Of a stretch of DNA of 64,000 nt, positions 5,087 to 57,228 are shown piece after piece (position 1 is the first letter of the stretch; each line of letters opens with the position of its first letter). The notes under the pieces were generated by a model, which was not told where the DNA came from, made no database searches, and was given only the letters and a program-made list of their open reading frames with translations. This stretch comes from Verrucomicrobiota bacterium (GTDB taxonomy: Bacteria > Verrucomicrobiota > Verrucomicrobiia > Limisphaerales > UBA8199): contig JBEKRX010000017.1 in the NCBI GenBank assembly GCA_049518415.1, forward strand, positions 82,305 to 146,304, given 5' to 3'. Both the position numbers and the translations under genes were made by a program.

Positions 5087-5118
5087 AACGCTTCAACACT
5101 TCAAGGCTTCAGCGCTTG
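5087..5118. repeat. Imperfect 8-mer tandem repeat x4 overlapping the stop of CDS 5093..6505
   Basis: aacgcttc aacacttc aaggcttc agcgcttg, preceded by ACCTGTTTAACT (5062-5073), which is identical to 7175-7186. Confidence 0.7.
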
Positions 5119-6505
5119 AACATATTCCCTCGGTCGGCGCCCGAGCCGGACGATTTCGCGGGCAATACTCGAAGCAGCGCGCGCAGGCGACGCAGGCGCC
5201 GCGATCCGGCTCGTAATCAGTCCGCGGGCGATAAACCGAGAGACTGATGAGCTTTGCGCCGATGACCAGCCCCACCCAGGCGCCGAAAATCCAGCCGCCG
5301 ACCAGGAATCGCTGCCGGATGGCCGCGGCGTCGGTCAGGAGTTCTTTTGGGCTTTGGCGGGCGCGTGCGAGCGCCAGGTCGGCGTCCGTCAGGGTGCCGG
5401 TCTTGGGCGGGGTGTCGCGCTCGCGCACGAAGCGCTCGGCGAGCTTAACGGTGGGGTGCAACCAGGCGGCGGGGACGCTGAAGCGCCCCCCGAGCCAGAC
5501 GCCGCCGGCCAGGAGCACCGGCAGAAGCAGGAGCAGCCAGGCCAGCCGGCGGCGGTCTTCGGCCAGTTGCGGTTCGGCTCTGGCGGCCTGCGGTCGGCGC
5601 ATCGCGCCATAGGGGCAAGCGGCCTCGCACAACCGGCAGCGGGCACAGTCATCGGTCGCCACGCGCACGCCCCATTTCGCGACTGCCGCGCCCAGCTTGA
5701 GCAAGGCGCCATAGGGACAAAGAAACCGGCAGTAAGGGCGGCCGACGAACACGCCCAGCAGCAGCAGGGCCGCCCCCGCCAGCACCATCAAGGTGCGCCC
5801 GTTCAGCCGGAAGATGGGCACGAAGGGATCGTATTGACAGATGATAAACGCGCTGCCCGTCGCCGCGAACAAGACCCCCGCTCCCAAGTAGATGAAGGGC
5901 AACACACTCAGGCCATGTTCCAGCCAGGAGGGCACTTTCACCGGTTTGAGCAGGAGCAAATCCTGCAACGCCCCGTGCGGGCAGACGCCCGCGCAGAAGG
6001 TCCGGCCCGCGAACAGCGCGAACGCCAGCGGCAACACAAAGAAAGCCGTCACCACCAGCGGCACCGCGTAGCCGCCGTCTCCCAGCGCCAGCGCCACATT
6101 CTGCAGCGAGCCGATGGCGCAAACGCAGCCTTTGCGCCAGAACCCGAAGTAGAGGAGCGAGAACCCTGACAGCGCCAGCACGCCCCGGCGCGAGCGTTTC
6201 CGGTACACCACCCAGGTAGCCAGGCCCAGCATCACCCCCAGCACGGCGACATCCAGGTACTGCAAGAGCACCGCGCGCGCCGCCGGCGTGGGCATGACCG
6301 GGAGTTGATGGCCGCTCTCGAATTCGGGCGGGGGAAAGCGTTGCTCGGCCAGCCCGCTCGCACAGCAGAGGGTGAGGAGCAAGGCGTAAAGCGCAAACCG
6401 CAAAATCCAGCCCGACGCCGAGGCAGGCTCGACCGAGGGACCAGCGCCGCCTGCGCGCGCCGCCCGCCGCCTGCTGCACTGCGCACTGGCTTGGCGCCAA
6501 GTCAT
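5093..6505 (-). CDS. NapH/MauN-type membrane polyferredoxin (4Fe-4S binding protein)
   Basis: 470 aa and multi-TM. Motifs CAGVCPHGALQD and CRFLCPYGALLK, plus two CxxCxxCxxxCP motifs (CARCRLCEAACP, CVACARCFEYCP). Its ATG directly abuts the upstream stop (TGAATG at 6503-6508). Confidence 0.8.
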   Translation of the reverse strand: MTWRQASAQCSRRRAARAGGAGPSVEPASASGWILRFALYALLLTLCCASGLAEQRFPPPEFESGHQLPVMPTPAARAVLLQYLDVAVLGVMLGLATWVVYRKRSRRGVLALSGFSLLYFGFWRKGCVCAIGSLQNVALALGDGGYAVPLVVTAFFVLPLAFALFAGRTFCAGVCPHGALQDLLLLKPVKVPSWLEHGLSVLPFIYLGAGVLFAATGSAFIICQYDPFVPIFRLNGRTLMVLAGAALLLLGVFVGRPYCRFLCPYGALLKLGAAVAKWGVRVATDDCARCRLCEAACPYGAMRRPQAARAEPQLAEDRRRLAWLLLLLPVLLAGGVWLGGRFSVPAAWLHPTVKLAERFVRERDTPPKTGTLTDADLALARARQSPKELLTDAAAIRQRFLVGGWIFGAWVGLVIGAKLISLSVYRPRTDYEPDRGACVACARCFEYCPRNRPARAPTEGICSSAEALKC

Positions 6506-7078
6506 TCAGTGGCTCCTGGTCTTGAGCAGGTAGGGTTGCTCCGCCGGCACCCGGCGGAAGGCATCACCGGCGCAGACTTTGGCGATGGCGCATTCATTGC
6601 AATTGACACAGCGGTCGTGGCGGACCTGGAGGAAGAGCGAGCCGTTGCCGAAACGGTTGCAGCCCTCCACGCATTTGGCGCAGCCGATGCAGAGCCCCTC
6701 CTCAATCGTGTATTCGTAATACGGGTCCTCGACGAAGGTGCGTTTGATGGCGCCGGTCGGGCAGAGGCAGTTCTCGGCGCCAGTGTTGAGGTCGTTCGGC
6801 TCCGGCTCGAAATAGCCGGTGCAGAGCTGGCAGTAGCCGCAGATGGCGAAGGCATGCACGCACTTCACCGCCGACTGTTCCAGCACGCAGTGGGTGGCGC
6901 AATTGCCGCAACGCACGCACTTCTGCGGATCGATTTGCCAGACCGTGCCTTGGGCCGCGCTGCGCCCGGCGACCACCCCGATCAGACCGCCCAGGCTCGT
7001 CAAGGCCGCCGCGCGCGCGCCCTCGCGCAGGAACTGCCGGCGGCTGACCGGCGGCTGGCTTGGAGGTTGGTTAGCCAT
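6506..7078 (-). CDS. Tat-exported multi-cluster 4Fe-4S ferredoxin (NapG-like)
   Basis: 190 aa. Twin-arginine signal VSRRQFLREGARAAAL. Cys clusters CVRCGNCATHC, CGYCQLC, CIGCAKCVEGC and CVNCNECAIAKVC. Confidence 0.85.
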   Translation of the reverse strand: MANQPPSQPPVSRRQFLREGARAAALTSLGGLIGVVAGRSAAQGTVWQIDPQKCVRCGNCATHCVLEQSAVKCVHAFAICGYCQLCTGYFEPEPNDLNTGAENCLCPTGAIKRTFVEDPYYEYTIEEGLCIGCAKCVEGCNRFGNGSLFLQVRHDRCVNCNECAIAKVCAGDAFRRVPAEQPYLLKTRSH

Positions 7079-7132
7079 GGTTTTTCAGCAGAGACGAGCT
7101 TTCAAGAGCCTTGCGGGGCAGGGTGGCGGGGG

Positions 7133-7160
7133 CCGAGGGTCGAGGGCCGAGGGTCGAGGG
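7133..7160. repeat. Heptamer tandem repeat (YCGAGGG)x4
   Basis: ccgaggg tcgaggg ccgaggg tcgaggg, in the spacer between the NHL gene and the ferredoxin gene. Confidence 0.8.
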
Positions 7161-7192
7161 AGGTCACTTATTTAACCTGTTTAACTCCTTTA

Positions 7193-7232
7193 ACGCTTCC
7201 ACGCTTCCAGGCTTCCACGTCTTCACGTCTTT
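7193..7232. repeat. 8-mer tandem repeat x5 overlapping the stop of the NHL gene
   Basis: acgcttcc acgcttcc aggcttcc acgtcttc acgtcttt, preceded by AACTCCTTTAACGCTT (7183-7198), which is identical to 61323-61338. Confidence 0.8.
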
Positions 7233-8266
7233 GCTTTCATCACCCGCACATCGGCGGCGACCAGGTCCAGCACATAAATCCGGCCTTGCGAATCCACGGC
7301 GGCATCCAGCCCGCCCAGCAGGCCGTCGCTAGTGTCCTTGAGGGCCCCAGCCCTGGCGTTTTCCGGTAACGATTCGGGCCCGACTACGACGCTCTCGAAG
7401 GCGCCTGAGGCCGAATAGATTTTCACGCGCGGCAATCCTTTTTCACAGGTGACATAGCGGCCGTCGGCCAGCAGGGCCACGGCCACCGGGTTGCAGCACC
7501 CGCAAAAGCCTTCGATGCCCGCCCCGGGTTTGCCCCAGGCAAACTCCAGGTCGCCCTTGACGGTGTAAACCTCCACGCAATGCCGCCCTGGATTGTTCAC
7601 GCGCAGCAGGCCGTCGCGGGCCACTGCCACGTCCAGGTAAGGGCTGGGGACGATGAGCCCGGGGATGTGGCGGTCTTTATTTTTCTCGCCGATGCGACCG
7701 GCCAGTTGGCCGGACTTGTCGTAATGCAGCACGACCCGGTTGCCGGCGTCGGCCACGAACACGTCTTGCCCGGCCACCGCCAGGCCCGTGAGCCAGGCCT
7801 TTTTGCCCGGCGAGCCCCACGCCGCCAGGCGCTGGCCTTTGCGGTCGAACACTTCCACATGCTCGCGCAGCCCGGCATAGACCGTCCCATCGGTGGCGAC
7901 GGCCACGCACCGCGCTGGGGCTGGCAAGGCAATCTCGTCCAACTGGGCGCCCGCGCGGTCAAGCACGCTCACGCCGTTGCTGGCCGCGATGTACAAGCGG
8001 TCCTCCGGGCCGACGGCCAGGCGGCGCGGCGCGGGACTCGGCGAGGCGAAGCGCGCGACTTGCTCGTAACGGATCAGCCTGGGGTCGGTCTTGCTCACCC
8101 GTTCCAGGTCGTAGGCAAAAGGGTTGGCGCCCTTTTGAGCGGCGCCGGCGCTTCCCACCCGCCCCGAGGCGGCCAGCCAGGCGCTGCCGACGCCAAACCA
8201 TCCGGCCCCGCGCGCGCTTTGCCGGAGGAATTGACGTCGGGTGATGGCCGGATTCCGATTTTTCAT
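7223..8266 (-). CDS. Tat-exported NHL-repeat beta-propeller protein
   Basis: Start moved to ATG 8264-8266, which has AGGAGG 6 nt upstream. MKNRNPAITRRQFLRQSA is a Tat signal. Blade-like repeats: LYIAASNGVSVLD, VYAGLREHVEVFD, VFVADAGNRVVLHYD, LLRVNNPGRHCVEVY, IYVLDLVAADVRVM. Unusual FCGCCNP motif. Confidence 0.75.
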   Translation of the reverse strand: MKNRNPAITRRQFLRQSARGAGWFGVGSAWLAASGRVGSAGAAQKGANPFAYDLERVSKTDPRLIRYEQVARFASPSPAPRRLAVGPEDRLYIAASNGVSVLDRAGAQLDEIALPAPARCVAVATDGTVYAGLREHVEVFDRKGQRLAAWGSPGKKAWLTGLAVAGQDVFVADAGNRVVLHYDKSGQLAGRIGEKNKDRHIPGLIVPSPYLDVAVARDGLLRVNNPGRHCVEVYTVKGDLEFAWGKPGAGIEGFCGCCNPVAVALLADGRYVTCEKGLPRVKIYSASGAFESVVVGPESLPENARAGALKDTSDGLLGGLDAAVDSQGRIYVLDLVAADVRVMKAKT

Positions 8267-13432: not shown

Positions 13433-15433
13433 TTACCTCGCCTTCACATCGTAACAGAACAGGAGGTCCTGATCGCGGATGTACAGTTTGCCGTTGGCAA
13501 TGACCGGGTGCGTCCAGGCCGGCTGCTGGCTGCGGTCGGGCTGGTCGAAGCGGCCACGCTCGAGGTATTGCTTCGGGTTCGGCTCAATCAGGAGCATGGT
13601 GCCCTTCTCGGTGCGATAGTAGAGTCGGCCATCCGCCAGGGCCAGCGAGCCTTTCGGCGCCCGGCGCTCGGCGTCGTCGCGCTCGTCCCAGAGAACGTTG
13701 CCGGTCTGGAAGTCGAGACAGACGAGGAAGCCACCCTCATTGCCGCCGTTGGCGCCATACAGGCAGCCGTCGAAGAAGATCATGCCGCCGTGGTGGTTTT
13801 GCATCTTCCTGGAGGAATAGACTTCTTCGGCCTTGACACCACCATTCGCATCCTTGCTCAGCTTCACCAAGCCACCGCCCGCACCATAGGCCGAGGCGGC
13901 GAACACCGTGCCATCGTGATAGACCGGCGTGGAACAGTTAATAGCCATGCCGTTGGCGGGCCGGTCATACCGCCAGAGGAACTTGCCGTCGGACGCCGCG
14001 ACCCCGACGAGTGCCCTCGCGGTGAGCTGCACGTACTGGCGCTGCCCGTCGAAGTCGATTGCGATGGCCGAGGCGTAGGCCGCTCCAGAACCGCCGAAAC
14101 CACCGGCACCACGGCCGGAGCCACCGGGACCGCGGCCGGGACCACCGGGACCGCGGCCCGGGCCGCCTGGACCACCATCGCGATTACCCCGACCGCCGCC
14201 GAAACCGCCGGCCACCTGGCTCATCATGCCTCCCTCAAAACCTTCATCCGGCTTCCAAACCTGGCCGCTCGAATCCGTAAATGGCGCGGACAGGCCGGCC
14301 TTGATCCGTAGGGTCGCTGCGGATGGCGCCGCACCGGTTACAGCCTCTGCCTGCGGAATGAGTTCAATCCCCTTAATTGCCGCGTTCTCGATCTGAGGCG
14401 TGAAAACAATGCGAAACTCTCCGTTGGTGACTTCCACAGGCACCGTTTCGATGTAGGCGCGGTTGGGACCGCCGGCCTTCGCCCAAACGTCAAAGTCCTT
14501 GAATTCATGCCCCTGGACATTGTAGGAAAAAACGCGCTGGCCAGGGCCGGTAATCCCTTCATAGGTCTCCGCAAAGTAGAGCTTCGCGAGATACTTGCCA
14601 TTGGGAACCTTGGAGGAGAAAGCTGTCATCCCCCAATGCTCGCTCATGAACAAGCCTGGGTCTTTGGTTCCGGTCACCACCGGGGCCGAGCCAGCGCCCC
14701 GTCCGCCGAGACCACCGGGGCCGCCGCCGGGACCGCCAGGCCCGCCCGCGGAACCACCCGGGCCACCGGGACTGCCACCGGGGCCGCCACCGGGACCGCC
14801 GGGCACCTGGCTCTTCCAGATCGTGTTGCCGGTCAACTTGTCGAGGGCCACCAGGATCGCGTCCTGGCCGCCGGGGGTGCAGATGACCTTATCACCATCA
14901 ACGAGCGGCGATTCGCGGTAACTCCAGGTTGGTACGCGCCCGCCAAAATCCCTCTGAAGGCTGCGTTGCCAAATGATCTTGCCGTCTTTGACCTGCAGGC
15001 AAGCCAGGTCGCCGCCCAAGCCCAGAACATAGAGCCGTTCGCCATCTACGGTCGGCGTGCACGCCGGCCCCTCTTTTCCCTGCGGCGCTTGCTGCTTGAA
15101 AGCGGACCCAAGGCGCGTCACCCAAAGTTCCTTGCCATCCTTTTCGGACAGGGCCCAAATGACTTCGTCGTCGCCGCGATTGCTCATGCCGAAGATCCGG
15201 CCAGCGGCAATGGAGGGACCGCTGTAGCCACCGCCGAGTCCGTTGATTTTCCAGGCGAGCGGTGGGCCGTCTTTCGTCCATTCCTTGAGCAGGCCGCTTT
15301 CCTTGGACATGGCGTTGCGGTCGGGACCCTGCCACTGCGGCCAGTCGTCAGCGCGCGCGCAGGACAGCAGGATGGTCCAACAAAGGGCGCTGATGACCGT
15401 CCTCTCAAGGTGCCCAGGTTCTTTCGTTCTCAT
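13433..15433 (-). CDS. Secreted PQQ-like beta-propeller protein interrupted by a malectin-like domain flanked by Gly/Pro-rich linkers
   Basis: 666 aa. Signal peptide followed by [13 protein letters not shown]. Propeller blades lie at aa 30-210 and 451-666. The insert at aa 211-450 has [30 protein letters not shown], then [41 protein letters not shown], then [28 protein letters not shown], then [21 protein letters not shown]. Confidence 0.75.
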
Positions 15434-19929: not shown

Positions 19930-21154
19930 CCAAGAACTGGCCCGCCGCCTGGCCGCGCTGCGCGAACAGGGACTCTATCGCGAATTGCGCCGCGTCGATT
20001 CGCCCCAAGCCCCTCACCTCGAGGTCGACGGCCAGGCCCTGCTCAACTTTTCTTCCAACGACTATTTGGGCCTCGCCAATGAGCCCGCTCTGAAAGAGGC
20101 CGCCTGCCAGGCCGTGCAGCGATACGGGGCCGGGGCCGGCGCCGCCCGGCTCACCTGCGGCTCGCTCGCGCCCCACCACGAACTGGAGGAAGCGCTGGCC
20201 GCCTTCAAAGGCGCCGCCGCTGCGCTGAGCTTTTCCACCGGCTACGCCGCCGCCCTTGGGGCCATCGGCGCGCTGGTGGGCAAAGACGACTTCCTCATTC
20301 TCGATAAACTCGTGCACGCCTGCATCGTCGACGCCGCCCGCCTCGCCGGCGCCAAACTCCGCATCTTCGCCCACAACGATACCGAAGACCTCGAGCACAT
20401 CCTCCAATGGGCGGAGCGGCAAGTCGGCCGCCCGAAGTCCACAGCCGACGCCTCGCGCCCGCGCGTGCTCGTGGTGACGGAGAGTGTTTTTTCGATGGAC
20501 GGCGACCAGGCGCCGTTGCGGGAGCTTGTGGCGCTCAAAGAGAAATACGGCGCGTGGCTGATGGTGGACGAGGCCCATGCCACCGGGCTCTATGGCCCGA
20601 ACCGGCGCGGCCTGGCTGAGGAACTCGGCGTCAGCGAGCAGATCGAAGTCCAGATGGGGACCCTGGGCAAAGCGCTGGGCGCGGCGGGCGGCTATATCTG
20701 CGGCTCACGGACGCTCATCCAGTACCTGGTCAACCGCGCCCGGACCTTCCTCTTCTCGACCTCGCCCGTGCCCGCGGCCGTCGCCGCCGCCACCGCCGGC
20801 ATCCGCTTCGTGCAATCCACCGCCGGCCAGCAGCGTCGCAACCTCCTCTGGCAACGAGTCTCCGACCTGCGCTCAGCTCTCGCCAACCAAGCCCCAGGGC
20901 CGCGCCCCCCGGCCCTCGCCCCTCTCCGCTCACCCCTGCCCGGCGCCATCATCCCCCTCCTGGTCGGCGACGAAAACCGCGCCGTGCAAATCTCCGCCGC
21001 CCTGCGCAGCCGTGGCATTTTCATCCCTGCCATCCGTTACCCAAGCGTCGCCCGCGGCCAGGCCCGCCTGCGCCTCACCCTCACGGCCGGCCACAGCCTG
21101 GCCGACCTCGAACAACTCCTGGCCGCGCTGCGGACCCTCGACTTCGGCGCTTGA
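19916..21154 (+). CDS. bioF: 8-amino-7-oxononanoate synthase
   Basis: LREQGLYRELRRVDSPQAPHLEVDGQALLNFSSNDYLGLANEP, TESVFSMDGDQAPL and MVDEAHATG. Start set at MSAFNQ (ATG 19916). Confidence 0.9.
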   Translation: MSAFNQELARRLAALREQGLYRELRRVDSPQAPHLEVDGQALLNFSSNDYLGLANEPALKEAACQAVQRYGAGAGAARLTCGSLAPHHELEEALAAFKGAAAALSFSTGYAAALGAIGALVGKDDFLILDKLVHACIVDAARLAGAKLRIFAHNDTEDLEHILQWAERQVGRPKSTADASRPRVLVVTESVFSMDGDQAPLRELVALKEKYGAWLMVDEAHATGLYGPNRRGLAEELGVSEQIEVQMGTLGKALGAAGGYICGSRTLIQYLVNRARTFLFSTSPVPAAVAAATAGIRFVQSTAGQQRRNLLWQRVSDLRSALANQAPGPRPPALAPLRSPLPGAIIPLLVGDENRAVQISAALRSRGIFIPAIRYPSVARGQARLRLTLTAGHSLADLEQLLAALRTLDFGA

Positions 21155-21231
21155 ACCTCAGACGCATTTCACTTTTTTTTGGTAGCCTTTCTGGCTTTTT
21201 ATCTTAATCCTCGCTCCTGATCTTCATCCGA

Positions 21232-21609
21232 ATGAATCGCCTCTTCGACCATGAGAAACTGGAGGTTTATCGGGAGTCTCTGGCCTTCGTCGCCTGGCTC
21301 GAGCCCCTGCTGCGAAAGCTGCCCAAATCGGTCGCCGTGCGTGACCAATTGGATCGGGCCAGTACCTCGATGGTTCTGAACCTTGCCGAAGGCAACGGAA
21401 AGTTCACCTCACCCGATCGTTGCCGTTTTTTTGACATTTCGCGCGGGTCGGCTCTGGAGTGTGCCGCGGCGCTGGATGTTCTGGCCTCCCCAGGCCGGTG
21501 TGAGTTGGGTGTGGTCGCCTCCGGGAAAGAGCGGCTACGCAGAATTGTTTCGATGCTCGTGGGGTTAATCAAAGCCAATTCTGATTGGCGGTTGCACGAG
21601 GGAGATTAG
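21232..21609 (+). CDS. Four-helix-bundle protein (23S rRNA intervening-sequence protein / Avd-like family)
   Basis: 125 aa. MNRLFDHEKLEVYRESLAFVAWLEPLLRKLPKSVAVRDQLDRASTSMVLNLAEGNGKFTSPDRCRFFDISRGSALECAAALDVL is the characteristic pattern of the TIGR02436 family. Confidence 0.85.
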   Translation: MNRLFDHEKLEVYRESLAFVAWLEPLLRKLPKSVAVRDQLDRASTSMVLNLAEGNGKFTSPDRCRFFDISRGSALECAAALDVLASPGRCELGVVASGKERLRRIVSMLVGLIKANSDWRLHEGD

Positions 21610-21665
21610 GATTAGGAGATTAGGATTAGGATTAGGATTAAGATTAAGATTAGGATTAAGGTCAG
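21604..21665. repeat. Hexamer tandem repeat (GATTAG/GATTAA), ~10 units
   Basis: gattag gattag ga gattag gattag gattag gattaa gattaa gattag gattaa ggtcag. Starts on the stop codon of the four-helix-bundle gene. Confidence 0.9.
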
Positions 21666-21730
21666 GAGGGACCACCCAAAAAAGTGAAGTGCTCCCTTGA
21701 ACCTCAGACTCTGGAATCAGGCCTTGAAAC

Positions 21731-23287
21731 ATGCACCCCCTCGCCAAACTGGATCACCTCTACCTCTGGCACCCCTTCACCCAGATGCGCGATTGGCTCA
21801 AGCGCGAGCCCCTGGTCATTGTGCAAGCCTGCGGCGCCGTGCTGCGCGATGCCCAGGGCCGTGAATACCTCGATGCCAACTCCTCCATCTGGACCAATCT
21901 CCATGGCCATAATCAGCCCCGGATCAACGCGGCCATCCGGCAGCAGTTGCGCAAAATCGCCCACAGCTCGGCCCTCGGCTACGCCAACGAACCCGCCAGC
22001 CGCCTGGCCGAACAACTGGTCAAGGCCGCCAATCCCTGCTGCGTGGCGCAGGCTGGAAGCGTGCACCGGGCGAGGACATTAGTGGGGCAGGCGGCCCGCC
22101 TGCCAGGAGGGCGTCTCGCCCTCGAAACCAACGCGGGCGAGACGCCGGCCCCACTACCCGTGCCGGCCCTGCGGAAAGTCTTCCTGTCCGACGACGGCGC
22201 CACAGCCATCGAGGTCGCCCTCAAACTCGCCTATGAGTTCACCCGCCGCGCTGGCCGCAGCGCCAAACCCAAATTCCTCTCGCTGGACGGCGCCTATCAT
22301 GGCGACAGCCTTGGGGCCGTGGCCCTGGGCCACATTGACCGGTTTCACAAGGCCTACGCGGGCCTGTTGTTCAAGACCGACAAGGTCATGGCGCCCTACT
22401 GCTATCGGTGCCCGTTCAATCGCGCCAGACCCGAGCGCGCCGACGCCCGCCAGTATCGCAAGTGCCGCTGGCAATGCCTGGACGCGCTGGAACGGAAATT
22501 CGAGGTCCAGCGGAAAAGGGGCAACCCTTATGCCGCCTTCGTCTTCGAGCCCTTGTTGCAAGGGGCGGCCGGCATGATTCCTCAGCCCGCAGGCTGGCTG
22601 CGCCGCGCCGCCCAAATCGCCCGCGCCCACGACGCCTTATTGCTCGCCGACGAAGTCATGACCGGCTTCGGCCGCACCGGGTTCCTGCACCCGCCCACTC
22701 CCTCACCCGCTCAGGCCCTCTCTCCCGCCCCCGCCCCGCCTCTCTTCGCCTGCCACCATGAGGCCGTCCAACCCGATTTTCTCGCCCTGGCCAAGGGCCT
22801 CACCGGCGGCTATCTGCCCATGGCGGCCACGCTCACCAGCCAAGCCGTCTTCGACGCGTTCCTCGGCGAATACGGTGAATTCAAGACCTTCTTCCACGGC
22901 CACAGTTTCACCGGCAACCAACTCGGGGCCGCCGCCGCCCTGGCCAGCCTGCAACTCCTCCAAGGGGCCCGGTCCATCCGTGCCCGGCAGCAACTTCAGC
23001 AAGCGTTGCGGGACCAATTGCCCGCCCTATGGTCCCTGCCACTCGTCGGCGACATTCGCCAGGTCGGCCTGGTCGCCGGGGTCGAACTCGTTCGCGACTG
23101 GCGCACGCGCGAACCGTTCGACCTGCGCGACCGCGCGGGCCTCCGCGTGTGCCAGGCCATGGCCAAACGCGGCGTCCTCACCCGCCCGATCGGCAACGTC
23201 ATCGTGCTCATGCCCCCCTATTGCACGACCCCGGAGCAGGTGCAATGCATCGTGGCCGCCCTGCGCTGGGCGGTCAGCACGCTATGA
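21731..23287 (+). CDS. bioA: Adenosylmethionine-8-amino-7-oxononanoate aminotransferase with two in-frame insertions
   Basis: DHLYLWHPFTQM, SDDGATAIEVALKLAYEF, DEVMTGFGRTG and LAKGLTGGYLPMAA are BioA signatures. 518 aa against the usual ~430-450. Extra segments lie at about 22034-22167 and 22682-22741. Confidence 0.9.
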   Translation: MHPLAKLDHLYLWHPFTQMRDWLKREPLVIVQACGAVLRDAQGREYLDANSSIWTNLHGHNQPRINAAIRQQLRKIAHSSALGYANEPASRLAEQLVKAANPCCVAQAGSVHRARTLVGQAARLPGGRLALETNAGETPAPLPVPALRKVFLSDDGATAIEVALKLAYEFTRRAGRSAKPKFLSLDGAYHGDSLGAVALGHIDRFHKAYAGLLFKTDKVMAPYCYRCPFNRARPERADARQYRKCRWQCLDALERKFEVQRKRGNPYAAFVFEPLLQGAAGMIPQPAGWLRRAAQIARAHDALLLADEVMTGFGRTGFLHPPTPSPAQALSPAPAPPLFACHHEAVQPDFLALAKGLTGGYLPMAATLTSQAVFDAFLGEYGEFKTFFHGHSFTGNQLGAAAALASLQLLQGARSIRARQQLQQALRDQLPALWSLPLVGDIRQVGLVAGVELVRDWRTREPFDLRDRAGLRVCQAMAKRGVLTRPIGNVIVLMPPYCTTPEQVQCIVAALRWAVSTL

Positions 23288-23354
23288 TTTGCCGCGCGCG
23301 AGCCAGGTGCTCCGCGGTGAGCTTGTCCTGCTTTTACGGGTGGGAGACCCCTGG

Positions 23355-24011
23355 TCAATCAGTTCGTTCTCCGAGCAATAACCGCCCAATTTCCTCGTAG
23401 GACTGCACGACATGGGTCGCCAGGCGCAGTGCCTCGGCCGGATGCGTGTTAGTTATCGCAATCACCTGCATGCCGGCCGCCAGGCCCGCGGCAACCCCGG
23501 GTTTGGAATCCTCCACCACGCAGCAGCCCTGGGGCGCGACTCCCAGCAGTTGCGCCGCGCGCAGGAAAATGTCCGGGGCAGGCTTGCCGCGGGGCACCTC
23601 CGTGTCGGTGACCACTGCCGCAAAGAACCGGCCCAGGCCCTCCAACCGGAGGACTTCCTCGACGATCGGGCGCTCGGAACCCGAGGCCAGGGCCAAGGGA
23701 TAGCGCGCCGCCAGTTTCTCGACCAGTCTTGGCAGTCCCGCGAACAGGGGCTGCTCGCGCCGGATTAGTTCCACCATCCGCTCCCGCTTCATGGCCAGCA
23801 GTTCCTCGGCGGCCTGGCTGGGCTTGTGCCGCGCGATGAAATCCATCCACAATTCCTGGTCCGAGCGGCCCACATAGTCCGAGAACCGCAAGCCGTGCGT
23901 GTCGGCGTAGCCGAGTTGGCGCACGACCTCCAGGAAGGCGCGTTCGTGGCGCGGCTCGCTGTCCACGATCACGCCGTCCATGTCGAAGATGACCGCTGCC
24001 AACGCTTTCAT
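23355..24011 (-). CDS. HAD-family hydrolase (beta-phosphoglucomutase-like subfamily IA)
   Basis: MKALAAVIFDMDGVIVDSEP (DxDG motif I), ALASGS, and KPAPDIFL..VVEDSKPGVAAGLAAGM. Start set at ATG 24011; the longer ORF extension is Arg/Pro junk. Confidence 0.85.
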   Translation of the reverse strand: MKALAAVIFDMDGVIVDSEPRHERAFLEVVRQLGYADTHGLRFSDYVGRSDQELWMDFIARHKPSQAAEELLAMKRERMVELIRREQPLFAGLPRLVEKLAARYPLALASGSERPIVEEVLRLEGLGRFFAAVVTDTEVPRGKPAPDIFLRAAQLLGVAPQGCCVVEDSKPGVAAGLAAGMQVIAITNTHPAEALRLATHVVQSYEEIGRLLLGERTD

Positions 24012-29459: not shown

Positions 29460-29536
29460 GAATTGGAATTAAGATTGCGATTAGAGATTACGGGATTAGG
29501 ATTAGGATTAAGATTAGGATTGGAATTAAGTTAAAG
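29460..29536. repeat. Degenerate hexamer tract (GATTAG/GATTAA/GAATTG family) ending 2 nt before the redoxin ATG
   Basis: gaattg gaatta agattg cgatta gagatta cgg gattag gattag gattaa gattag gattgg aattaa gttaaa. Same unit as 21604-21665. Confidence 0.85.
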
Positions 29537-39726: not shown

Positions 39727-39751
39727 GAAAGGGAAAGGGAAAGGGAAAGGG
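39727..39751. repeat. Hexamer tandem repeat (GAAAGG)x4
   Basis: gaaagg gaaagg gaaagg gaaagg g. Confidence 0.9.
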
Positions 39752-39942: not shown

Positions 39943-39976
39943 CCAATCCAGCCAATCCAGCCAATCCAGCCAATGG
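39943..39976. repeat. Nonamer tandem repeat (CCAATCCAG)x3.7
   Basis: ccaatccag ccaatccag ccaatccag ccaatgg. Confidence 0.9.
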
Positions 39977-40280: not shown

Positions 40281-41585
40281 ATGAAGCACTACACTCGCCG
40301 CCAGTTTTTGGCCCGGGCCGGCGGGCTGGGCGCGCTGGCGGTTTGCGCCGGGCCGGTCCTCGCCTCGAGCAGCCGCCTGGGGAACAAGCTGCCGCTGGCC
40401 GAGGCCTTTGACCGGGAGATGGAGCGATTCATGTCGGCGCGGAAGGTCCCGGGCGGCGCGCTGGCGGTGCTGAAGGACCAGCGCCTGGTCTATGTCCGCG
40501 GCTACGGCTGGGGGGACCGGGAGAAAAAGGAGCCGGTGAAAGCGGAGTCTTTGTTCCGGATTGCCAGCATCTCCAAGCCGTTCACCGCGGCGGCCGTGCT
40601 CAAGCTGAGCGAGAGCCGCCGCCTGGACCTCGAGGCGCCCGTGCTCGAACTCGTGCGGCTGGAGCCGGTGCTGGCGAAAGGCAAACAGCCCGATGCACGC
40701 TGGCAGCGGGTCACGGTTCGTCATTGCCTGCATCATACCGGCGGCTGGGATCGCGCAGCCAGCGGCGACCCGATGTTTCGTTCGGGCGAGATTGCCCGGG
40801 CGGTGGGCGTTCCGGCCCCGGCCAACCAGGAGGCGATCATCCGTTACCTGCTGGGCCAGCCGCTCGATTTCGAGCCCGGCGCCCGCTATGCTTATTCGAA
40901 CTTCGGATATTGCCTGCTCGGGCGCGTGATTGAGAGAGTGAGCGGCCAACCCTACGAGCAATTCGTGCGGCAGGCAGTGCTGGCGCCCATGGGCATTCGG
41001 CGGATGCGGCTGGGGGTTTCGCTCGCCAGCGGGCGGGCGGAGGGCGAAGTGAGATACTACACCCCCAACAACCGCCGAAGCCCCAGCGTGTTCCCCGGGC
41101 AACCCGCCAAAGTCCCCGAGCCGTACGGCAGCTTCTGCCTGGAAGCGATGGACGCGCACGGGGGTTGGCTGGCCTCGGCGGTCGAGCTCGCCCGGTTTGC
41201 AGCGGCGCTGCAGGCGCCGGCGGGCAATGCCTCTTTGCAAGCCGACACCCGGCGAATCTTCTACGAGCCGCCGGCCCCGCCCGTCAGCCGGAAAGCCGAC
41301 GGCTCACTGGCGGATTATTATTACGGCTGCGGCTGGAACGTGCGCCCGGTGGGAAACCAGGGGCGCGCCAACTACTGGCACAACGGCAGTCTGCCCGGAA
41401 CGTTCACTCTGCTGGTGCGCCGCTTCGACGGCCTCAGTTGGGCGGCCCTCTTCAATCAACGCTCGGAATCTTCCCGCCTGCCCGATGGCGCCATCGACTC
41501 GGCCTTGCACCGCGCCGCCGATGCCGTGGCCGAATGGCCGGCGGATGATCTCTTTGCCCACGGACCACGGACCGGACGAGCGTGA
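40281..41585 (+). CDS. Tat-exported serine hydrolase (class C beta-lactamase / PBP4-like family)
   Basis: MKHYTRRQFLARAGGLGALAV is a Tat signal. FRIASISKPFTAAAVLKL contains the SxxK motif. Start set at ATG 40281. Confidence 0.85.
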   Translation: MKHYTRRQFLARAGGLGALAVCAGPVLASSSRLGNKLPLAEAFDREMERFMSARKVPGGALAVLKDQRLVYVRGYGWGDREKKEPVKAESLFRIASISKPFTAAAVLKLSESRRLDLEAPVLELVRLEPVLAKGKQPDARWQRVTVRHCLHHTGGWDRAASGDPMFRSGEIARAVGVPAPANQEAIIRYLLGQPLDFEPGARYAYSNFGYCLLGRVIERVSGQPYEQFVRQAVLAPMGIRRMRLGVSLASGRAEGEVRYYTPNNRRSPSVFPGQPAKVPEPYGSFCLEAMDAHGGWLASAVELARFAAALQAPAGNASLQADTRRIFYEPPAPPVSRKADGSLADYYYGCGWNVRPVGNQGRANYWHNGSLPGTFTLLVRRFDGLSWAALFNQRSESSRLPDGAIDSALHRAADAVAEWPADDLFAHGPRTGRA

Positions 41586-41614
41586 GTGGGTGAGTGGGTG
41601 AGTGAGTGGGTGGG
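41582..41614. repeat. Octamer tandem repeat (GTGAGTGG)x4, starting on the stop codon of the hydrolase gene
   Basis: gtgagtgg gtgagtgg gtgagtgagtgg gtggg. Confidence 0.85.
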
Positions 41615-52590: not shown

Positions 52591-55092
52591 ATGAGAACAA
52601 CTCGGTTCAAAACTCTTCAAGTCGTGACGTTTTTCTGCGGGGCCGCTCTTTGGCTGGGGCCGAACCCGGCCCGGGCGGAGCGGACTTGCCTCTCCCTGGA
52701 CGGCACCTGGGCGGTCGCGGAGGGGAACTTAAGCCAGGCGCCCTCTTGGTTTAATCACCGGGTGCCGGTGCCGGGGCTGCTCGATGAGGCGCGGCCGGCC
52801 TTCGCCCAGGTCGGCCTCAAAAGTCCCTTGCGTGAGGCCTTCTGGTATCGCCGCGAATTTCGCATCCAAGGCGAAGTGCCGGCAGTCGCCAAGCTCAAAG
52901 TCCACAAGGCCGCCTACGGAGCGCGGGTCTGCCTGAACGGCATTTTCCTGGGCGAGCACCTGCCCAGCTTCACGCCGGGTTACTTCGATGTCCGGCGGGC
53001 CTTGCGCGGCCACGGGGCGGCCAATGAGCTGGTCATCCGGGTCGGGGCCTTGCCTGATGCGCTGCCAGCCTCGCTCCCCTCGGGGTTTGATTTCGAAAAG
53101 AGCCGTTACATTCCGGGGCTGTTCGATTCGGTGGAACTCATCCTGTCCGGCACGCCGCACCTGGAACAGGTCCAGGTCGCGCCCGACCTCGCCAACCGGG
53201 CGATTCGGGTGCAGGCCGCCGTGCGCAATGCCGGTCCGAAGACTGACGCCCGGCTGTTTTTCCGCGTGCGCGAGGCGCGCTCGCAAAGGCTGGTCGCCGA
53301 GAGCAGTTCGGAGCCGCTCCGTCTCGACCGCGAGGCGGAGCAGACCGTCGAGGTCCGCATCCCCATGCCCAAGTGCCGGGCCTGGAGCCCGGAGGACCCC
53401 TTCCTCTACGAACTGGAGGCCGGCACCAGCGCCGACAGCCTGCGCACGCGCTTCGGCATGAGGGAATTTCATTTGGACCCGGCGACGGGCCGCGCGGTAT
53501 TGAACGGGCGGCCGTATTTTTTGCGGGGCAGCAACGTGACGCTTTACCGGTTTTTCGAGGACGCGCAATGCGCTGACCATCCCTGGCGGGCGGACTGGGT
53601 GCGCCGTCTCCACCGGCAGTTCAAGGCCCTGCACGGCAATGCCCTTCGTTACTGCATCGGCTTCCCCCCCGAGCTCTGGTACCGCATCGCCGACGAGGAA
53701 GGCCTGCTCATCCAGGACGAGTTCCCCCTCTGGTTTGGCGACCGCTGGCCGGCCGAACTCAAAAGCCAGGAGTTGATCCGGGAATACACCGAATGGATGC
53801 AGGAACGCTGGAACCACCCCTGCGTGGTCATCTGGGACGCCCAAAACGAGTCTGTCACCGCCGAGACCGGCAAAGCCATCGCCCAGGTCCGCAGCCTGGA
53901 CCTCTCTCATCGTCCCTGGGACAACGGCTATGGCCAGCCCCAATCCCCGGCAGACACTTTCGAGTCCCATCCCTATCTGTTCAGCAATCCACGGTTCAGA
54001 CTCTCCGGTTTGGCTCAGGTTTCCGGCGTCCCGCAGGGCAACGCCATTGCCAATGCCGGCCACAACCCGATCATCATCAATGAGTACGACTGGCTGTGGC
54101 TCAACCGGGACGGCTCGCCGACGACCCTTTCGGGGAAAGTTTACGAGAACCTGCTCGGCCCCAAAGCCACGGCGGCGCAGCGGCGGCTGCTTTGTGCCAG
54201 GTACAACGCGGCCCTGACCGAGTTCTGGCGCGCGCATCGGGCCTGCGCGGGTGTGCTGCACTTTTGCGGCCTGGGCTATTCGCGCACCAACGGCCAGACC
54301 TCGGACAACTTCATCGACCTCGAGCGGCTGAAATTCGAGCCGCACTTTCAGCACTACATGGCCGACGCCTTTGCCCCGGTGGGATTGATGATCGATGAGT
54401 GGCGCCCGGTGCTGCCCCCCGGAGTGGAACAGACGACTGCGGTCGTCGTCATCAATGACCTCTACCAAAAGTGGCAGGGCTGGGTCCGGTTTCGGGTCCT
54501 GCGCCGGGGCCGGCCGGTCGCCGAGCAGGTCCGCCCCTGCGCCGTGGCGGCGCTGGGCGAGACGAAATTGAACTTCCGCGGCCGCACCCCAAAAACGCCG
54601 GGCCATTACCAACTCGAGGCCTCCTTGCTCCATGCCGGCGCCCGCCCGGTCCGCAGTCTGCGCGACTTCCGCATCGCCGCCACGGAGAGCAACCGGGACG
54701 GGGGAATCGCCCTGCACCAGCCCGTGAAGGCCTCCTCCAGCCATGTCGAGCCGGGCGCCAATTACGGGCCGGAGAATGCGGTGGACGGGGCGGACGATAC
54801 GCGGTGGTCGTCTGAGTTCAGCGACCCGCAATGGCTGGCGATTGACCTGGGCAGCCCCAGGCAGTTATCGCGGGTGGTGCTCGAGTGGGAGGCGGCTTAC
54901 GCGCAAAGCTATGCCATCCAGGTCTCCGACGATGGCGCCACCTGGCGGGAGGTCTATACGAACACCAGCGGCAAGGGCGATACGGAAGAGATCAGATTTG
55001 CCCCGGTCTCAGCCCGCTGGGTGCGGTTCTATGGCACGAAACGGGCCACGCCCTACGGCTACTCGCTCTGGGAGATAAGAGTCTTTCCGTGA
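52591..55092 (+). CDS. Glycoside hydrolase family 2-like enzyme with C-terminal discoidin (F5/8 type C) domain
   Basis: Signal peptide. WYRREF..AKLKVHKAAYGARVCLNGIFLGEH is the GH2 sugar-binding domain. WNHPCVVIWDAQNES is in the catalytic region. C-terminus: NAVDGADDTRWSSEFSDPQWLAIDLG..YSLWEIRVF. Confidence 0.8.
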   Translation: MRTTRFKTLQVVTFFCGAALWLGPNPARAERTCLSLDGTWAVAEGNLSQAPSWFNHRVPVPGLLDEARPAFAQVGLKSPLREAFWYRREFRIQGEVPAVAKLKVHKAAYGARVCLNGIFLGEHLPSFTPGYFDVRRALRGHGAANELVIRVGALPDALPASLPSGFDFEKSRYIPGLFDSVELILSGTPHLEQVQVAPDLANRAIRVQAAVRNAGPKTDARLFFRVREARSQRLVAESSSEPLRLDREAEQTVEVRIPMPKCRAWSPEDPFLYELEAGTSADSLRTRFGMREFHLDPATGRAVLNGRPYFLRGSNVTLYRFFEDAQCADHPWRADWVRRLHRQFKALHGNALRYCIGFPPELWYRIADEEGLLIQDEFPLWFGDRWPAELKSQELIREYTEWMQERWNHPCVVIWDAQNESVTAETGKAIAQVRSLDLSHRPWDNGYGQPQSPADTFESHPYLFSNPRFRLSGLAQVSGVPQGNAIANAGHNPIIINEYDWLWLNRDGSPTTLSGKVYENLLGPKATAAQRRLLCARYNAALTEFWRAHRACAGVLHFCGLGYSRTNGQTSDNFIDLERLKFEPHFQHYMADAFAPVGLMIDEWRPVLPPGVEQTTAVVVINDLYQKWQGWVRFRVLRRGRPVAEQVRPCAVAALGETKLNFRGRTPKTPGHYQLEASLLHAGARPVRSLRDFRIAATESNRDGGIALHQPVKASSSHVEPGANYGPENAVDGADDTRWSSEFSDPQWLAIDLGSPRQLSRVVLEWEAAYAQSYAIQVSDDGATWREVYTNTSGKGDTEEIRFAPVSARWVRFYGTKRATPYGYSLWEIRVFP

Positions 55093-55139
55093 ATTGAATT
55101 GCCAATCGCCAATGGCCGAGTGGTCTAAGGCGCAATGGT

Positions 55140-55322
55140 GGAGGTCCTGAGAACCGCTTTCCCACGGCTGGCGTCATGGGCTGCGCCCCCCGCGCTCCCT
55201 GGCAGGCGAGACGCCTGCCCCACTACCTCGTTGGCGTCACGGGCTGAAATGTCTGCGCCCCCCGGCTCCCCCCGAATCCGTTCGGCCTTGGGCCTGCCTG
55301 GCGCCGGAGGCGCCCCCGAACT
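55140..55322. repeat. Hairpin-rich intergenic element (family member 3) with internal duplication
   Basis: TGGCGTCAYGGGCTG..GCGCCCCCC occurs twice. GGCAGGCG-aga-CGCCTGCC CCACTACC and GGCGCC-gga-GGCGCC hairpins. GGGCTGAAATGTCTGCGCCCC parallels GGGCTACTGTCTTGTTGCCCC at 2970-2990. Confidence 0.6.
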
Positions 55323-55562
55323 CTATTCCACCGGGATGTTCTCGCCCTTGGCTTGGGGCTTTGAATAGTGCGCAATGCGCGCATCGAGCATCGCCCGGAG
55401 GCCTTTGAGCAGTTCCATCCGGGCGGCCTCGAAGTGGCGTCGTGCCTCCTCGGGCGGCCCCAACCGCCGCAAAAAGTCGCTCAGGCCAGGGCCTGCCCCC
55501 TGGCAGAGACACGGACCATACTCCGGTTTTGAAGATTTTTTGGCTCTCTTCTTATTATTCAT
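55323..55562 (-). CDS. Small (79 aa) basic protein translationally coupled to the ArsA-like ATPase
   Basis: MNNKKRAKKSSKPEYGPCLCQGAGPGLSDFLRRLGPPEEARRHFEAARMELLKGLRAMLDARIAHYSKPQAKGENIPVE. Its ATG overlaps the ArsA stop (ATGA at 55559-55562). Confidence 0.5.
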   Translation of the reverse strand: MNNKKRAKKSSKPEYGPCLCQGAGPGLSDFLRRLGPPEEARRHFEAARMELLKGLRAMLDARIAHYSKPQAKGENIPVE

Positions 55563-56749
55563 ACTGCCTCCTGCAGTTCTACCACCAACAGGCCGCCCTC
55601 GAGCCGCGCTCGGACCGGCGCCAACCCCATCATCGAACTGGGCAAACCAATGTGCCGCCGCACGGTCCCGATCTCGATGACCAGTTCTTCCCCTTTTTTG
55701 AAAACCCCAACCTCGCCCTTGGCCGCAAACGGCGCCTGCATCCGCACTTCGTACCGGCCGTCCCGCTTGCTGAACGAATAAGGCCGCTCGGTGCGCGTCA
55801 CCGCGCTCGGGTCTTCCCGTTCGCTGAAGGTTGCGCGGGCGAGTTGGCGAATCCGCTCCAGGCCCAGCACCTCCTGCCGGAACAGCGGCACCTGCCGCAC
55901 CGGCACCGGGGCGAAATAGGCCTCGACCTCCTTGAGAAACTTCTCCTGGGTGCGCCGCCACTCCCGGAAGAATGCATCCTCCACCTGCTCTGGCAGCACC
56001 CGATTGACCAGCACCTGGTCCACCGTCAGACCATGCAAGGAAAAATAAACGAACGCCCGCTGGGTCTCCCGCACCACCATCTTCTCCGCATTGGTCACCA
56101 ACCGCACGCTCGTCACCCGGGGGTCTTCCAAGAGTTGATCGATCCCCTCAATCTGGCCAAACAGCTCCTTGACGCTCGCAAAATAGCTGTCCGGCGGCAG
56201 CTCGAAAGGCGCTACCCGGTTGGCGATTGGGCGCACCGCCTTTAACAAGCCGCGCTGGAGGGGGAAGACATGCTGCATGTACCACTTCATCGTCGTGGGC
56301 ATCGCGATGAACCGCAGGCTTTCCCCCGTCGGCGCGCAGTCCAGCACGATGACATCATATCGCCCTTCCTTGTGCCATTGGTTGACGTAGAGCAAGGCGC
56401 TCAGTTCCTCCATGCCCGGAAAGATGGCCATCTCCTCCGCCTCCACCTCGCTCAACCCCGACGTCCGCAACAGCGAACTGATGTACGACCAGATCCGCTG
56501 CCAATGCCGCTTGATCTCTTTCTGGATGTTGACCTCGTGAATCCAGAGATTATCGGCGATGCGGTAGGGATCGGCGGTCCTGGCATCGAACAGGCCGGAC
56601 TCCAGGTCGAAGGCATCGCCCAGCGAATGCGCCGGGTCCACGCTCATCACCAGCGTGCGATAGCCCAACTCCGCCAGGCGCGTCCCCGTCGCCGCCGACA
56701 GACTGGTCTTGCCCACGCCGCCTTTGCCGCTAAACAGAAGTATGCGCAT
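55559..56749 (-). CDS. ArsA/GET3-family ATPase with C-terminal HSP20/CS-like domain
   Basis: MRILLFSGKGGVGKTSLSAATG (P-loop), VMSVDPAHSLGDAF, and DVIVLDCAPTGESLRF. C-terminal beta domain: RYEVRMQAPFAAKGEVGVFKKGEELVIEIG. Confidence 0.9.
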   Translation of the reverse strand: MRILLFSGKGGVGKTSLSAATGTRLAELGYRTLVMSVDPAHSLGDAFDLESGLFDARTADPYRIADNLWIHEVNIQKEIKRHWQRIWSYISSLLRTSGLSEVEAEEMAIFPGMEELSALLYVNQWHKEGRYDVIVLDCAPTGESLRFIAMPTTMKWYMQHVFPLQRGLLKAVRPIANRVAPFELPPDSYFASVKELFGQIEGIDQLLEDPRVTSVRLVTNAEKMVVRETQRAFVYFSLHGLTVDQVLVNRVLPEQVEDAFFREWRRTQEKFLKEVEAYFAPVPVRQVPLFRQEVLGLERIRQLARATFSEREDPSAVTRTERPYSFSKRDGRYEVRMQAPFAAKGEVGVFKKGEELVIEIGTVRRHIGLPSSMMGLAPVRARLEGGLLVVELQEAV

Positions 56750-57129: not shown

Positions 57130-57228
57130 GTGCCAAGGTGCCGGAGCCAGGGGGATCTTCCCGATAGCCGATAGCCAATAGCCGATAGCCGACAGGTGCC
57201 AAGGTGCCGGAGCCGGGCGGATCTTCCC
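57130..57228. repeat. 33-bp direct repeat pair flanking a (GATAGCC)x4 heptamer tract
   Basis: GTGCCAAGGTGCCGGAGCCAGGGGGATCTTCCC (57130-57162), then gatagcc gatagcc aatagcc gatagcc (57163-57190), then GTGCCAAGGTGCCGGAGCCGGGCGGATCTTCCC (57196-57228). Confidence 0.85.

Follow-up and report, generated by a model that had tools for sequence, protein, structure and literature searches.

A probable REPIN-like palindromic repeat inserted in frame within a loop of BioA in a Verrucomicrobiota bacterium

The window analysed here, a 64-kb stretch of contig JBEKRX010000017.1 from a Verrucomicrobiota bacterium, carries a bioA gene (21731..23287, + strand) that contains a 77-nt palindromic element and yet retains an intact reading frame. 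The 518-residue product is of the adenosylmethionine-8-amino-7-oxononanoate aminotransferase type, a class III pyridoxal 5'-phosphate (PLP) aminotransferase (Pfam PF00202), and its top matches among solved structures are BioA from B. subtilis (3DOD; E = 1.6e-108) and also BioA from E. coli. All 44 homologues compared keep the PLP-binding residues D307 and K355, and many other positions are likewise invariant. Upstream of bioA lies a bioF-like gene, followed by a small open reading frame (ORF) of the 23S_rRNA_IVP family. Judged from the full-length similarity, the PLP-binding lysine and aspartate and the bioF neighbour, the gene is predicted to encode BioA.

The product is longer than the solved BioA enzymes (518 residues compared with 429-448), in line with an earlier note on this DNA, which had put the excess at 70-90 residues. 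Two insertions are evident from the alignments. The alignment with 3DOD spans residues 2-98 and 146-515 of the product; in between, residues 99-145 lie opposite just four residues of 3DOD, leaving about 43 extra residues, close to the 45 codons that had been proposed. From this alignment and that of 120 homologues, the first insertion is placed at 22040..22168 (+ strand; about 43 codons, residues ~104-146), between helix 87-100 and strand 147-153. The second appears as a 19-residue gap after the GFGRTG motif in the 3DOD alignment (~22682-22741) and comprises 20 Pro/Ala/Ser-rich codons (FLHPPTPSPAQALSPAPAPP; 22682..22741, + strand). An AlphaFold2 model based on 44 close homologues (mean predicted local distance difference test score, pLDDT, of 65) was used just for secondary-structure context. 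The first insertion is modelled as coil with pLDDT below 50 and the second as coil between helices 310-315 and 340-344. The alignment and the model place the element in a loop.

The palindromic element lies within the first insertion at 22080..22156 (no strand assigned), has the ends TAGTGGGG...CCCCACTA and would encode about LVGQAARLPGGRLALETNAGETPAPL. It is a composite that we describe as the short form of a REPIN-like doublet of repetitive extragenic palindrome (REP) units. The two hairpins noticed earlier in this insert are both recovered as inverted repeats: a perfect 9-bp hairpin (22086-22104) with fully complementary arms GGCAGGCGG (22086-22094) and CCGCCTGCC (22096-22104), and a second hairpin (22110-22146) whose 15-nt arms GGCGTCTCGCCCTCG (22110-22124) and CGCGGGCGAGACGCC (22132-22146) are 93% complementary. 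The first hairpin belongs to the left terminal REP unit (22080..22104, - strand; reverse complement GGCAGGCGGGCCGCCTGCCCCACTA), which has a stem of 8-9 bp and a loop of 1-3 nt and matches the family pattern exactly. The second is the central hairpin (22110..22146, no strand assigned), which is also present in the minimum-free-energy structures; its 3' arm is shared with the right terminal unit (22133..22157, + strand; GCGGGCGAGACGCCGGCCCCACTAC), a degenerate or fused copy, as the 5' arm of the latter. In addition, the outer arms TAGTGGGGCAGGCGGCCCGCCTGC (22080-22103) and GCGGGCGAGACGCCGGCCCCACTA (22133-22156) are 83% complementary over 24 nt. The element folds with -54.1 kcal/mol as RNA (z = -5.8) and -32.2 kcal/mol as DNA (z = -6.4), none of 200 shuffled sequences folds as well, and it ranks first among the inverted repeats of the whole window. 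The extent of 22034-22167 originally given for the element was too wide, the remainder including an older, decayed REP unit at 22043-22066.

The basic unit of 25 nt can be written as GGCAGGCG-nnn-CGCCTGCC followed by CCACTA, a short G+C-rich palindrome with a stem of 8-9 bp. Read on the tag strand it is (G)TAG-TGG-GGCAGGCG..., where GTGG immediately precedes the stem on its 5' side, as in the GTAG/GTGG tag of REPs. Some of the conservation that the retrieved copies show in the GTGG tag and the CCCCACTA end stems from the search pattern itself; the tag is independently supported by inserts in relatives, which were chosen without a pattern and begin GTGGGGCAGGC, GTGGGGCGAG, GTAGCGCAGGC or GTAGCCGCCG. 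The outer arms and the fold of the whole element show two inverted units forming a larger hairpin, as in a REPIN. The location departs from the extragenic one of REPs and REPINs, since this copy lies inside bioA. A known RNA or a terminator was rejected as the identity of the element: a search of 21100-23500 against Rfam at E values of up to 1 returned no known RNA family, and terminator prediction gave no terminator-like site in the element.

The element belongs to a dispersed family. When one genome per species was scanned with the pattern GGCAGGCGNNNCGCCTGCCCCACTA, at least 82 genome stretches proved to contain the 25-nt end unit GGCAGGCGnnnCGCCTGCCCCACTA, most of them from Verrucomicrobiota metagenome-assembled genomes (MAGs). 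The MAGs that bear it include Pedosphaera, Limisphaerales and Chthoniobacter and often have the unit on many contigs (among the matches listed, 15 contigs in Pedosphaera sp. VAR_18 and 13 in OTE_75_metabat_229), so that related MAGs hold many dispersed copies per genome. The flanks of these matches reveal that the unit terminates a longer element, TAGTGGGGCAGGCG...hairpin(s)...CGCCTGCCCCACTA. Complete elements bounded by TAGTGGGG and CCCCACTA were found 55 times in other genomes, most commonly with lengths of 107-114 nt (mode 108). Over its length the bioA copy can be aligned with members of the family, and it is a short form like the 79-nt copy of locus L073, both being without an internal block of ~26-30 nt that is found in the longer copies. 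Within the 64 kb of the window, an nhmmer profile built from 41 foreign copies finds just two places: 22080-22156, where it covers model positions 1-112 (E = 4e-7 and 1e-6), and 55200-55225 (E = 1e-4).

The second match is a solo REP unit of the same family (GGCAGGCGAGACGCCTGCCCCACTA; 55201..55225, + strand) in the spacer between the convergent ORFs 52591..55092 (+ strand) and 55323..55961 (- strand). The left unit of the bioA element, GGCAGGCGGGCCGCCTGCCCCACTA, and this intergenic GGCAGGCGAGACGCCTGCCCCACTA are one unit with different loops. The earlier note had reported a recurrence at 55203-55229 on the strength of a short shared word. The recurrence itself stands, but the word does not carry it: the 11-mer GGCGAGACGCC, with up to one mismatch, has three matches in comparison with 4.0 expected, which is not significant, and longer words and the profile were therefore used. 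The 14-mer GCCTGCCCCACTAC has four matches where 0.74 are expected, a number equalled in none of 100 shuffles, and the foreign-copy profile matches at both places. The description of the family as intergenic likewise holds for the solo unit but not for the family as a whole, because copies are also found within genes.

These intragenic copies were sought as open frames running through the unit in the 82 stretches, which were then tested against Pfam. In no fewer than 14 of these stretches the copy lies within a Pfam-confirmed gene. The genes concerned encode PSCyt2/PSD1, GDSL/DUF7133, M28 peptidase (within the domain), radical SAM, GH127, protein kinase (within the domain), RecQ, UvrD, Laminin_G_3/DUF7133, PurM, GatB, acetate kinase and aconitase, the last in two MAGs at the same site. 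The two aconitase copies (L039, 3917-3977; L078, 639-744) differ in length and lie between LEYLAKGVLS and LYYPDTLVGTDSH in genes that are 73% identical; aconitase is thus a second case of an orthologous loop occupied by the repeat family. Long frames in eight further loci were not counted as intragenic. Those in L072, L013 and L008 are high-GC read-through spanning a transposase gene or a neighbouring UDPGP gene, and those in L043, L045, L020, L018 and L021 are high-GC read-through with no Pfam match.

A candidate for the mobilising enzyme was found next to the family in other MAGs. Locus L072 contains a 205-residue gene (6790-7404) with an IS200-like Y1 transposase domain (Y1_Tnp), flanked by inverted terminal units at 6726-6750 (- strand) and 7449-7473 (+ strand), and homologues of this gene lie within ~150 nt of units in L013 and L015. 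The best NCBIfam model for all three proteins is 'REP-associated tyrosine transposase' (RAYT), and one of the three passes its curated cut-off; the RAYT protein has no sequence match in the PDB. In these three loci the family is accordingly associated with a RAYT gene, as expected of REPs. With its GTGG/GTAG tag directly 5' of the stems and the transposase close by, the family fits the REP/RAYT system of Di Nocera, De Gregorio & Rocco (2013, BMC Genomics 14:522, PMC3733652).

The history of the bioA copy was approached through 120 homologues with 67-77% identity and the DNA of 74 related loci. Almost all of the internal length variation among the 120 homologues is confined to two sites, those of the two insertions, with 0-52 residues at site 1 and 0-57 residues at site 2. 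Nearly all members of the clade have extra sequence at both sites, and some (P0019 and others) have almost none at site 1. Within the first insertion of the bioA gene studied here, the older and decayed REP unit (GTGG-CGCAGGC-TGGAA-GCGTGCA-C; 22043..22066, + strand) encodes the VAQAGSVH part of the loop and is collinear in the DNA alignment with an intact GT(A/G)G-CGCAGGC-TTCCA-GCCTGCG in L166, L167 and L092. The sequence 3' of the 77-nt element is also collinear with these three loci, which makes the element an addition specific to its lineage, nested next to the remnant of an older REP. Among the 120 homologues, 17 have the exact peptide VAQA and 37 have a looser VAQASS-like pattern. By contrast, the 25-residue peptide of the element occurs in none of the 120 proteins or 74 loci, and inserts at the same site differ in sequence; a segment common to the orthologues at the protein level without the palindromic DNA, which would have spoken against a repeat insertion, was not seen.

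The inserts of the relatives are often repeat-like themselves. Many are palindromic, with motifs such as GTGGGGCAGGC.., GTGGGGCGAG.., GTAGCCGCCGACGTGAG.. and TTTGGAGTCCCGCCTTCAGGCGG.., and others are arrays of 6-7-nt units. When the 76 inserts of at least 45 nt from both sites are pooled, 55% fold with z below -2 (median -2.3), compared with a mean of -0.05 for controls of the same length from the same genes. Matches to DNA outside bioA were found for 34 of 111 inserts and for two of 111 controls in 0.9 Mb of collected loci. DNA similarity groups the 60 site-1 inserts into 41 clusters and the 51 site-2 inserts into 41. Even between genes with 85-90% core identity, a common 14-mer is shared by just two of 15 pairs at site 1 and three of 12 pairs at site 2. 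A single open frame without an internal stop is nevertheless kept in all 74 related loci despite insert lengths of 0-147 nt. At both BioA sites the relatives thus carry short tandem arrays and palindromes, dozens of them and unrelated to one another, and in every case the frame is kept.

Taken together, these results make it probable that the 77-nt sequence is a non-autonomous mobile repeat, an inverted pair of REP-type hairpins mobilized by a RAYT, that resides in a tolerated loop of BioA. The earlier suggestion that a member of a palindromic repeat family had landed in bioA without breaking the frame is borne out by the family profile, the foreign copies and the differing inserts of relatives. 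The family would most likely be mobilized by the RAYT, a tyrosine transposase of the HUH/Y1 type. The element would have inserted beside the older decaying REP that was already present in the loop leading from the helix into the first strand of the PLP-binding domain, and its net addition, in frame and free of stops, would contribute about 25 residues to a probably disordered and exposed loop of ~43 residues in an enzyme that stays functional. Since the frame is kept and no stop codon is introduced, the insert is presumably translated; the predicted tryptic peptides that span it include TLVGQAAR, LPGGR and LALETNAGETPAPLPVPALR. The loop opened by the first insertion may then act like intergenic DNA inside a gene, with selection just on the frame and on the avoidance of stops, so that later palindromes and short tandem arrays land, decay and are replaced. 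Such a neutral zone would explain the hypervariability of site 1 and of the site after GFGRTG across the order, and it is the reason that we infer for the recurrent insertion. Targeting of hairpins by the transposase may be an alternative reason.

Several points weigh against this interpretation. The RAYT gene is absent from the 64-kb window, for which reason the mobilizing enzyme of the source genome is deduced from other MAGs and RAYT-mediated insertion in the source genome is itself an inference. The window holds one complete and one solo copy, so that the family may be sparse or inactive here. The exact boundaries of the insertion are not fixed, as there is no empty-site allele: the nearest relatives have ~83% core identity, and the protein collection contains no close relative without the element, the cluster at 90% identity consisting of the bioA sequence alone. 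The AlphaFold2 model is mediocre and only weakly suggests that the first loop is disordered and surface-exposed. Retained enzyme activity and translation of the insert are predictions from sequence comparison. Finally, the second insertion lies three residues after the GFGRTG arginine, reportedly an active-site residue in mutant work on R253 of E. coli, and tolerance at that position is therefore not self-evident.

The alternative that survives best is a different kind of mobile element, although we consider it improbable. Miniature inverted-repeat transposable elements (MITEs) such as Correia/NEMIS, RUP and Nezha are derivatives of DDE insertion sequences and duplicate a TA target. The bioA element could be a MITE of this IS630/Tc1-mariner type, similar to the Correia elements of Neisseria, and not a RAYT-dependent REP doublet. 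It shares with the TA-duplicating MITEs a size within ~70-150 nt, terminal inverted repeats, strong folding and TA at both ends (TA-GTGGGG...CCCCAC-TA), and most of the 55 complete copies also end in TA. Removal of 75 nt, which is the element minus one TA and exactly 25 codons, leaves an in-frame sequence that is collinear with relatives. The flanking TA and this codon count would also fit a TA-duplicating MITE, which is kept as a minor alternative for their sake. However, the search patterns included the terminal TA, which partly accounts for its conservation, and each end is a self-folding hairpin preceded by GTGG or GTAG, the signature of REPs (Di Nocera et al., 2013). The sole transposase seen adjoining these ends is of the RAYT-type Y1 class, next to the same terminal units in three loci and flanked by them in L072, whereas a search of the loci, which was not exhaustive, showed no DDE transposase with such ends.

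Less probable than the MITE is the possibility that the extra loop is a lineage-specific protein feature, grown by slippage or duplication and kept for a function (as a regulatory or interaction loop, or as an mRNA structure that tunes translation), with its likeness to a repeat being secondary. That nearly all clade members bear extra sequence at both sites could indicate that some loop is required. On the other hand, the sequences at the sites are unrelated between close relatives, so that no specific peptide or RNA is conserved; P0019 and other members of the clade manage with almost no insert at site 1; and the bioA element is recognised by a profile whose copies come from other genomes and from genes other than bioA.

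Slightly less likely still is that bioA is a decaying or neutralized pseudogene, whose loss of importance would explain why insertions are tolerated. In its favour are the two large insertions, of which one lies so close to the GFGRTG arginine. Against this, the 518-codon frame is free of stops, the PLP lysine and aspartate and many other positions are invariant, and the bioF-bioA context is conserved in independent assemblies. Neutral insertions and deletions would break the frame about two-thirds of the time, but it is kept in 74 of 74 related loci. Of the two outcomes left standing by the earlier note, a tolerated surface loop or an inactive gene, the intact frame, the invariant residues and the related loci together favour the tolerated loop, as far as can be judged from sequence comparison. 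An assembly or binning artefact, with a chimeric join through the repeat, can be practically dismissed: repeats are classic sites of metagenome misassembly, but bioA and its element are identical on contigs of three independent assemblies whose flanks are 99.995-100% identical across 14-21 kb, and the BioA alignment runs on in frame on either side of the element.

The second insertion has a different character from the element. It is Pro/Ala-rich and 20 codons long, as had been described, and has neither a hairpin nor a palindromic fold (z = +1.0 to +1.1); a blastn comparison with the collected loci gave no match outside bioA. On these grounds it was not taken to be a repeat copy. The closest relatives of this bioA have a Pro/Ala/Ser-rich stretch of equal length at the same site. 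We leave the insertion as a decayed or slippage-derived stretch common to the closest subclade, not recognisably derived from a repeat here. A weak 16-nt tandem duplication within it (22688-22720; CACCCGCCCACGCCCT x2.1, 82% matches; detected with TRF) hints at a contribution from slippage.

Beyond the single element, the two BioA loops might be standing landing pads that have been colonized repeatedly across the order by unrelated REP-type palindromes and 6-7-nt arrays, with turnover far faster than that of the enzyme core. Mobile hairpin repeats would then have a possible general route to create or remodel disordered loops, perhaps aided by hairpin-targeting transposases rather than by selection alone. 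We offer this proposal tentatively and regard it as possible but somewhat doubtful; the aconitase loop shows the same pattern and is cited in its favour.

The bioA element has precedents in known systems. REPs of the GTAG type are found inside genes, most commonly in the verrucomicrobium Opitutus terrae, where GTGG replaces GTAG in one family, the repeats flank RAYT genes and REP dimers inside genes encode 20-30 residues; in two Xanthomonas species, different REPs occupy about the same site of recB (Di Nocera et al., 2013). Our family resembles the O. terrae REPs of that study in having a short G+C-rich hairpin after GTGG or GTAG, inverted pairs, many dispersed copies, RAYT genes flanked by units and genic copies that add ~20-30 residues, and in belonging to the phylum Verrucomicrobia. 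It differs in its sequence family, the peptides listed there (GTGVPPV, VGPALAAG and GRDARAT) being unlike those of the bioA family; neither VGQA nor GETPAP was found in the supplement, and bioA is not in the list of interrupted genes. The full-length elements are also composites of ~108 nt with three or four hairpins and not simple dimers, and that study does not describe many unrelated repeats occupying one pair of loops throughout an order. The same paper recalls the Rickettsia palindromic elements (RPEs), which are found in frame within genes. The likeness to RPEs is one of behaviour alone, a palindromic repeat in frame in genes that still seem functional; the Rickettsia lineage is unrelated and A+T-rich, and the sequences are presumably unrelated. 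RPEs lying in frame in genes whose products seem to have stayed functional were reportedly described by Ogata and coworkers in 2000 and 2002. With intragenic GTAG REPs in Verrucomicrobia and RPEs already published, the bioA case is a new example and not a new phenomenon. Less well covered so far, it seems, is that a single enzyme has taken up dozens of unrelated repeats in the same two loops throughout an order.

As such, the bioA element provides a clean and well-bounded example of what is probably selfish hairpin DNA joining an essential enzyme without destroying it, and repeats of this sort appear to account for most of the length differences inside BioA across the order. In annotation, unusual low-complexity loops of proteins from Verrucomicrobiota, along with the many 'hypothetical' peptides like GETPAPL and GRRDACPT, become readable as translated repeats. 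The two loops amount to a natural experiment on the insertions that a PLP enzyme tolerates, and the intragenic copies and RAYT loci are material with which the insertion rules of a REP family from outside the Proteobacteria could be defined. If the loops do act as landing pads, hairpin repeats would have a general means of remodelling disordered loops in these bacteria.

A number of further features were observed. In two of the MAGs the RAYT-like gene adjoins a gene of the UDPGP family (UTP-glucose-1-phosphate uridylyltransferase; L072, 6726-7473, and L013, 1874-2714), and in a third a REP pair alone lies near a UDPGP-family gene (L008, 2385-2415), which suggests that this neighbourhood is a conserved 'REPtron' locus. 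Some repeat-bearing MAGs are titled Klebsiella, Chitinophaga pinensis, Bifidobacteriaceae or Akkermansia (L014, L016, L017, L022, L034, L050, L057, L059, L060, L062, L065, L070, L073, L077 and L078). Such labels are implausible for a high-G+C repeat of the Pedosphaera type, and these bins are therefore probably mislabelled or contaminated. Around the solo unit at 55201-55225, an imperfect 35-nt direct repeat (55169-55203 and 55232-55266, 71% identical) may be an insertion duplication or part of another repeat. In the same spacer, 55110-55135 (gccgagtggtctaaggcgc) resembles the D-arm region of tRNA-Ser or tRNA-Leu and may be a tRNA fragment; ARAGORN predicts no tRNA anywhere in the 64-kb window.

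Tandem arrays with periods of 6-9 nt are spread across the window. Examples are GATTAG x8.8 directly upstream of bioA (21604-21658) and ATTAGG x8.5 (29468-29521), and others lie at 5087-5121, 7130-7160, 7193-7224, 39727-39751, 39943-39974, 41582-41614 and 57161-57192. Similar 6-7-nt arrays are found in relatives just upstream of bioA and, in frame and sometimes inverted, in both BioA loops. Tandem repeats with a period of 21 nt (GCCGGAACCACCGGGACCGCG and similar) at 14093-14173 and 14703-14803 are probably a Gly/Pro-rich coding repeat. The small 23S_rRNA_IVP-family ORF between bioF and bioA (21232-21609) encodes 125 residues of this four-helix-bundle family and is kept on all three contigs with bioA.

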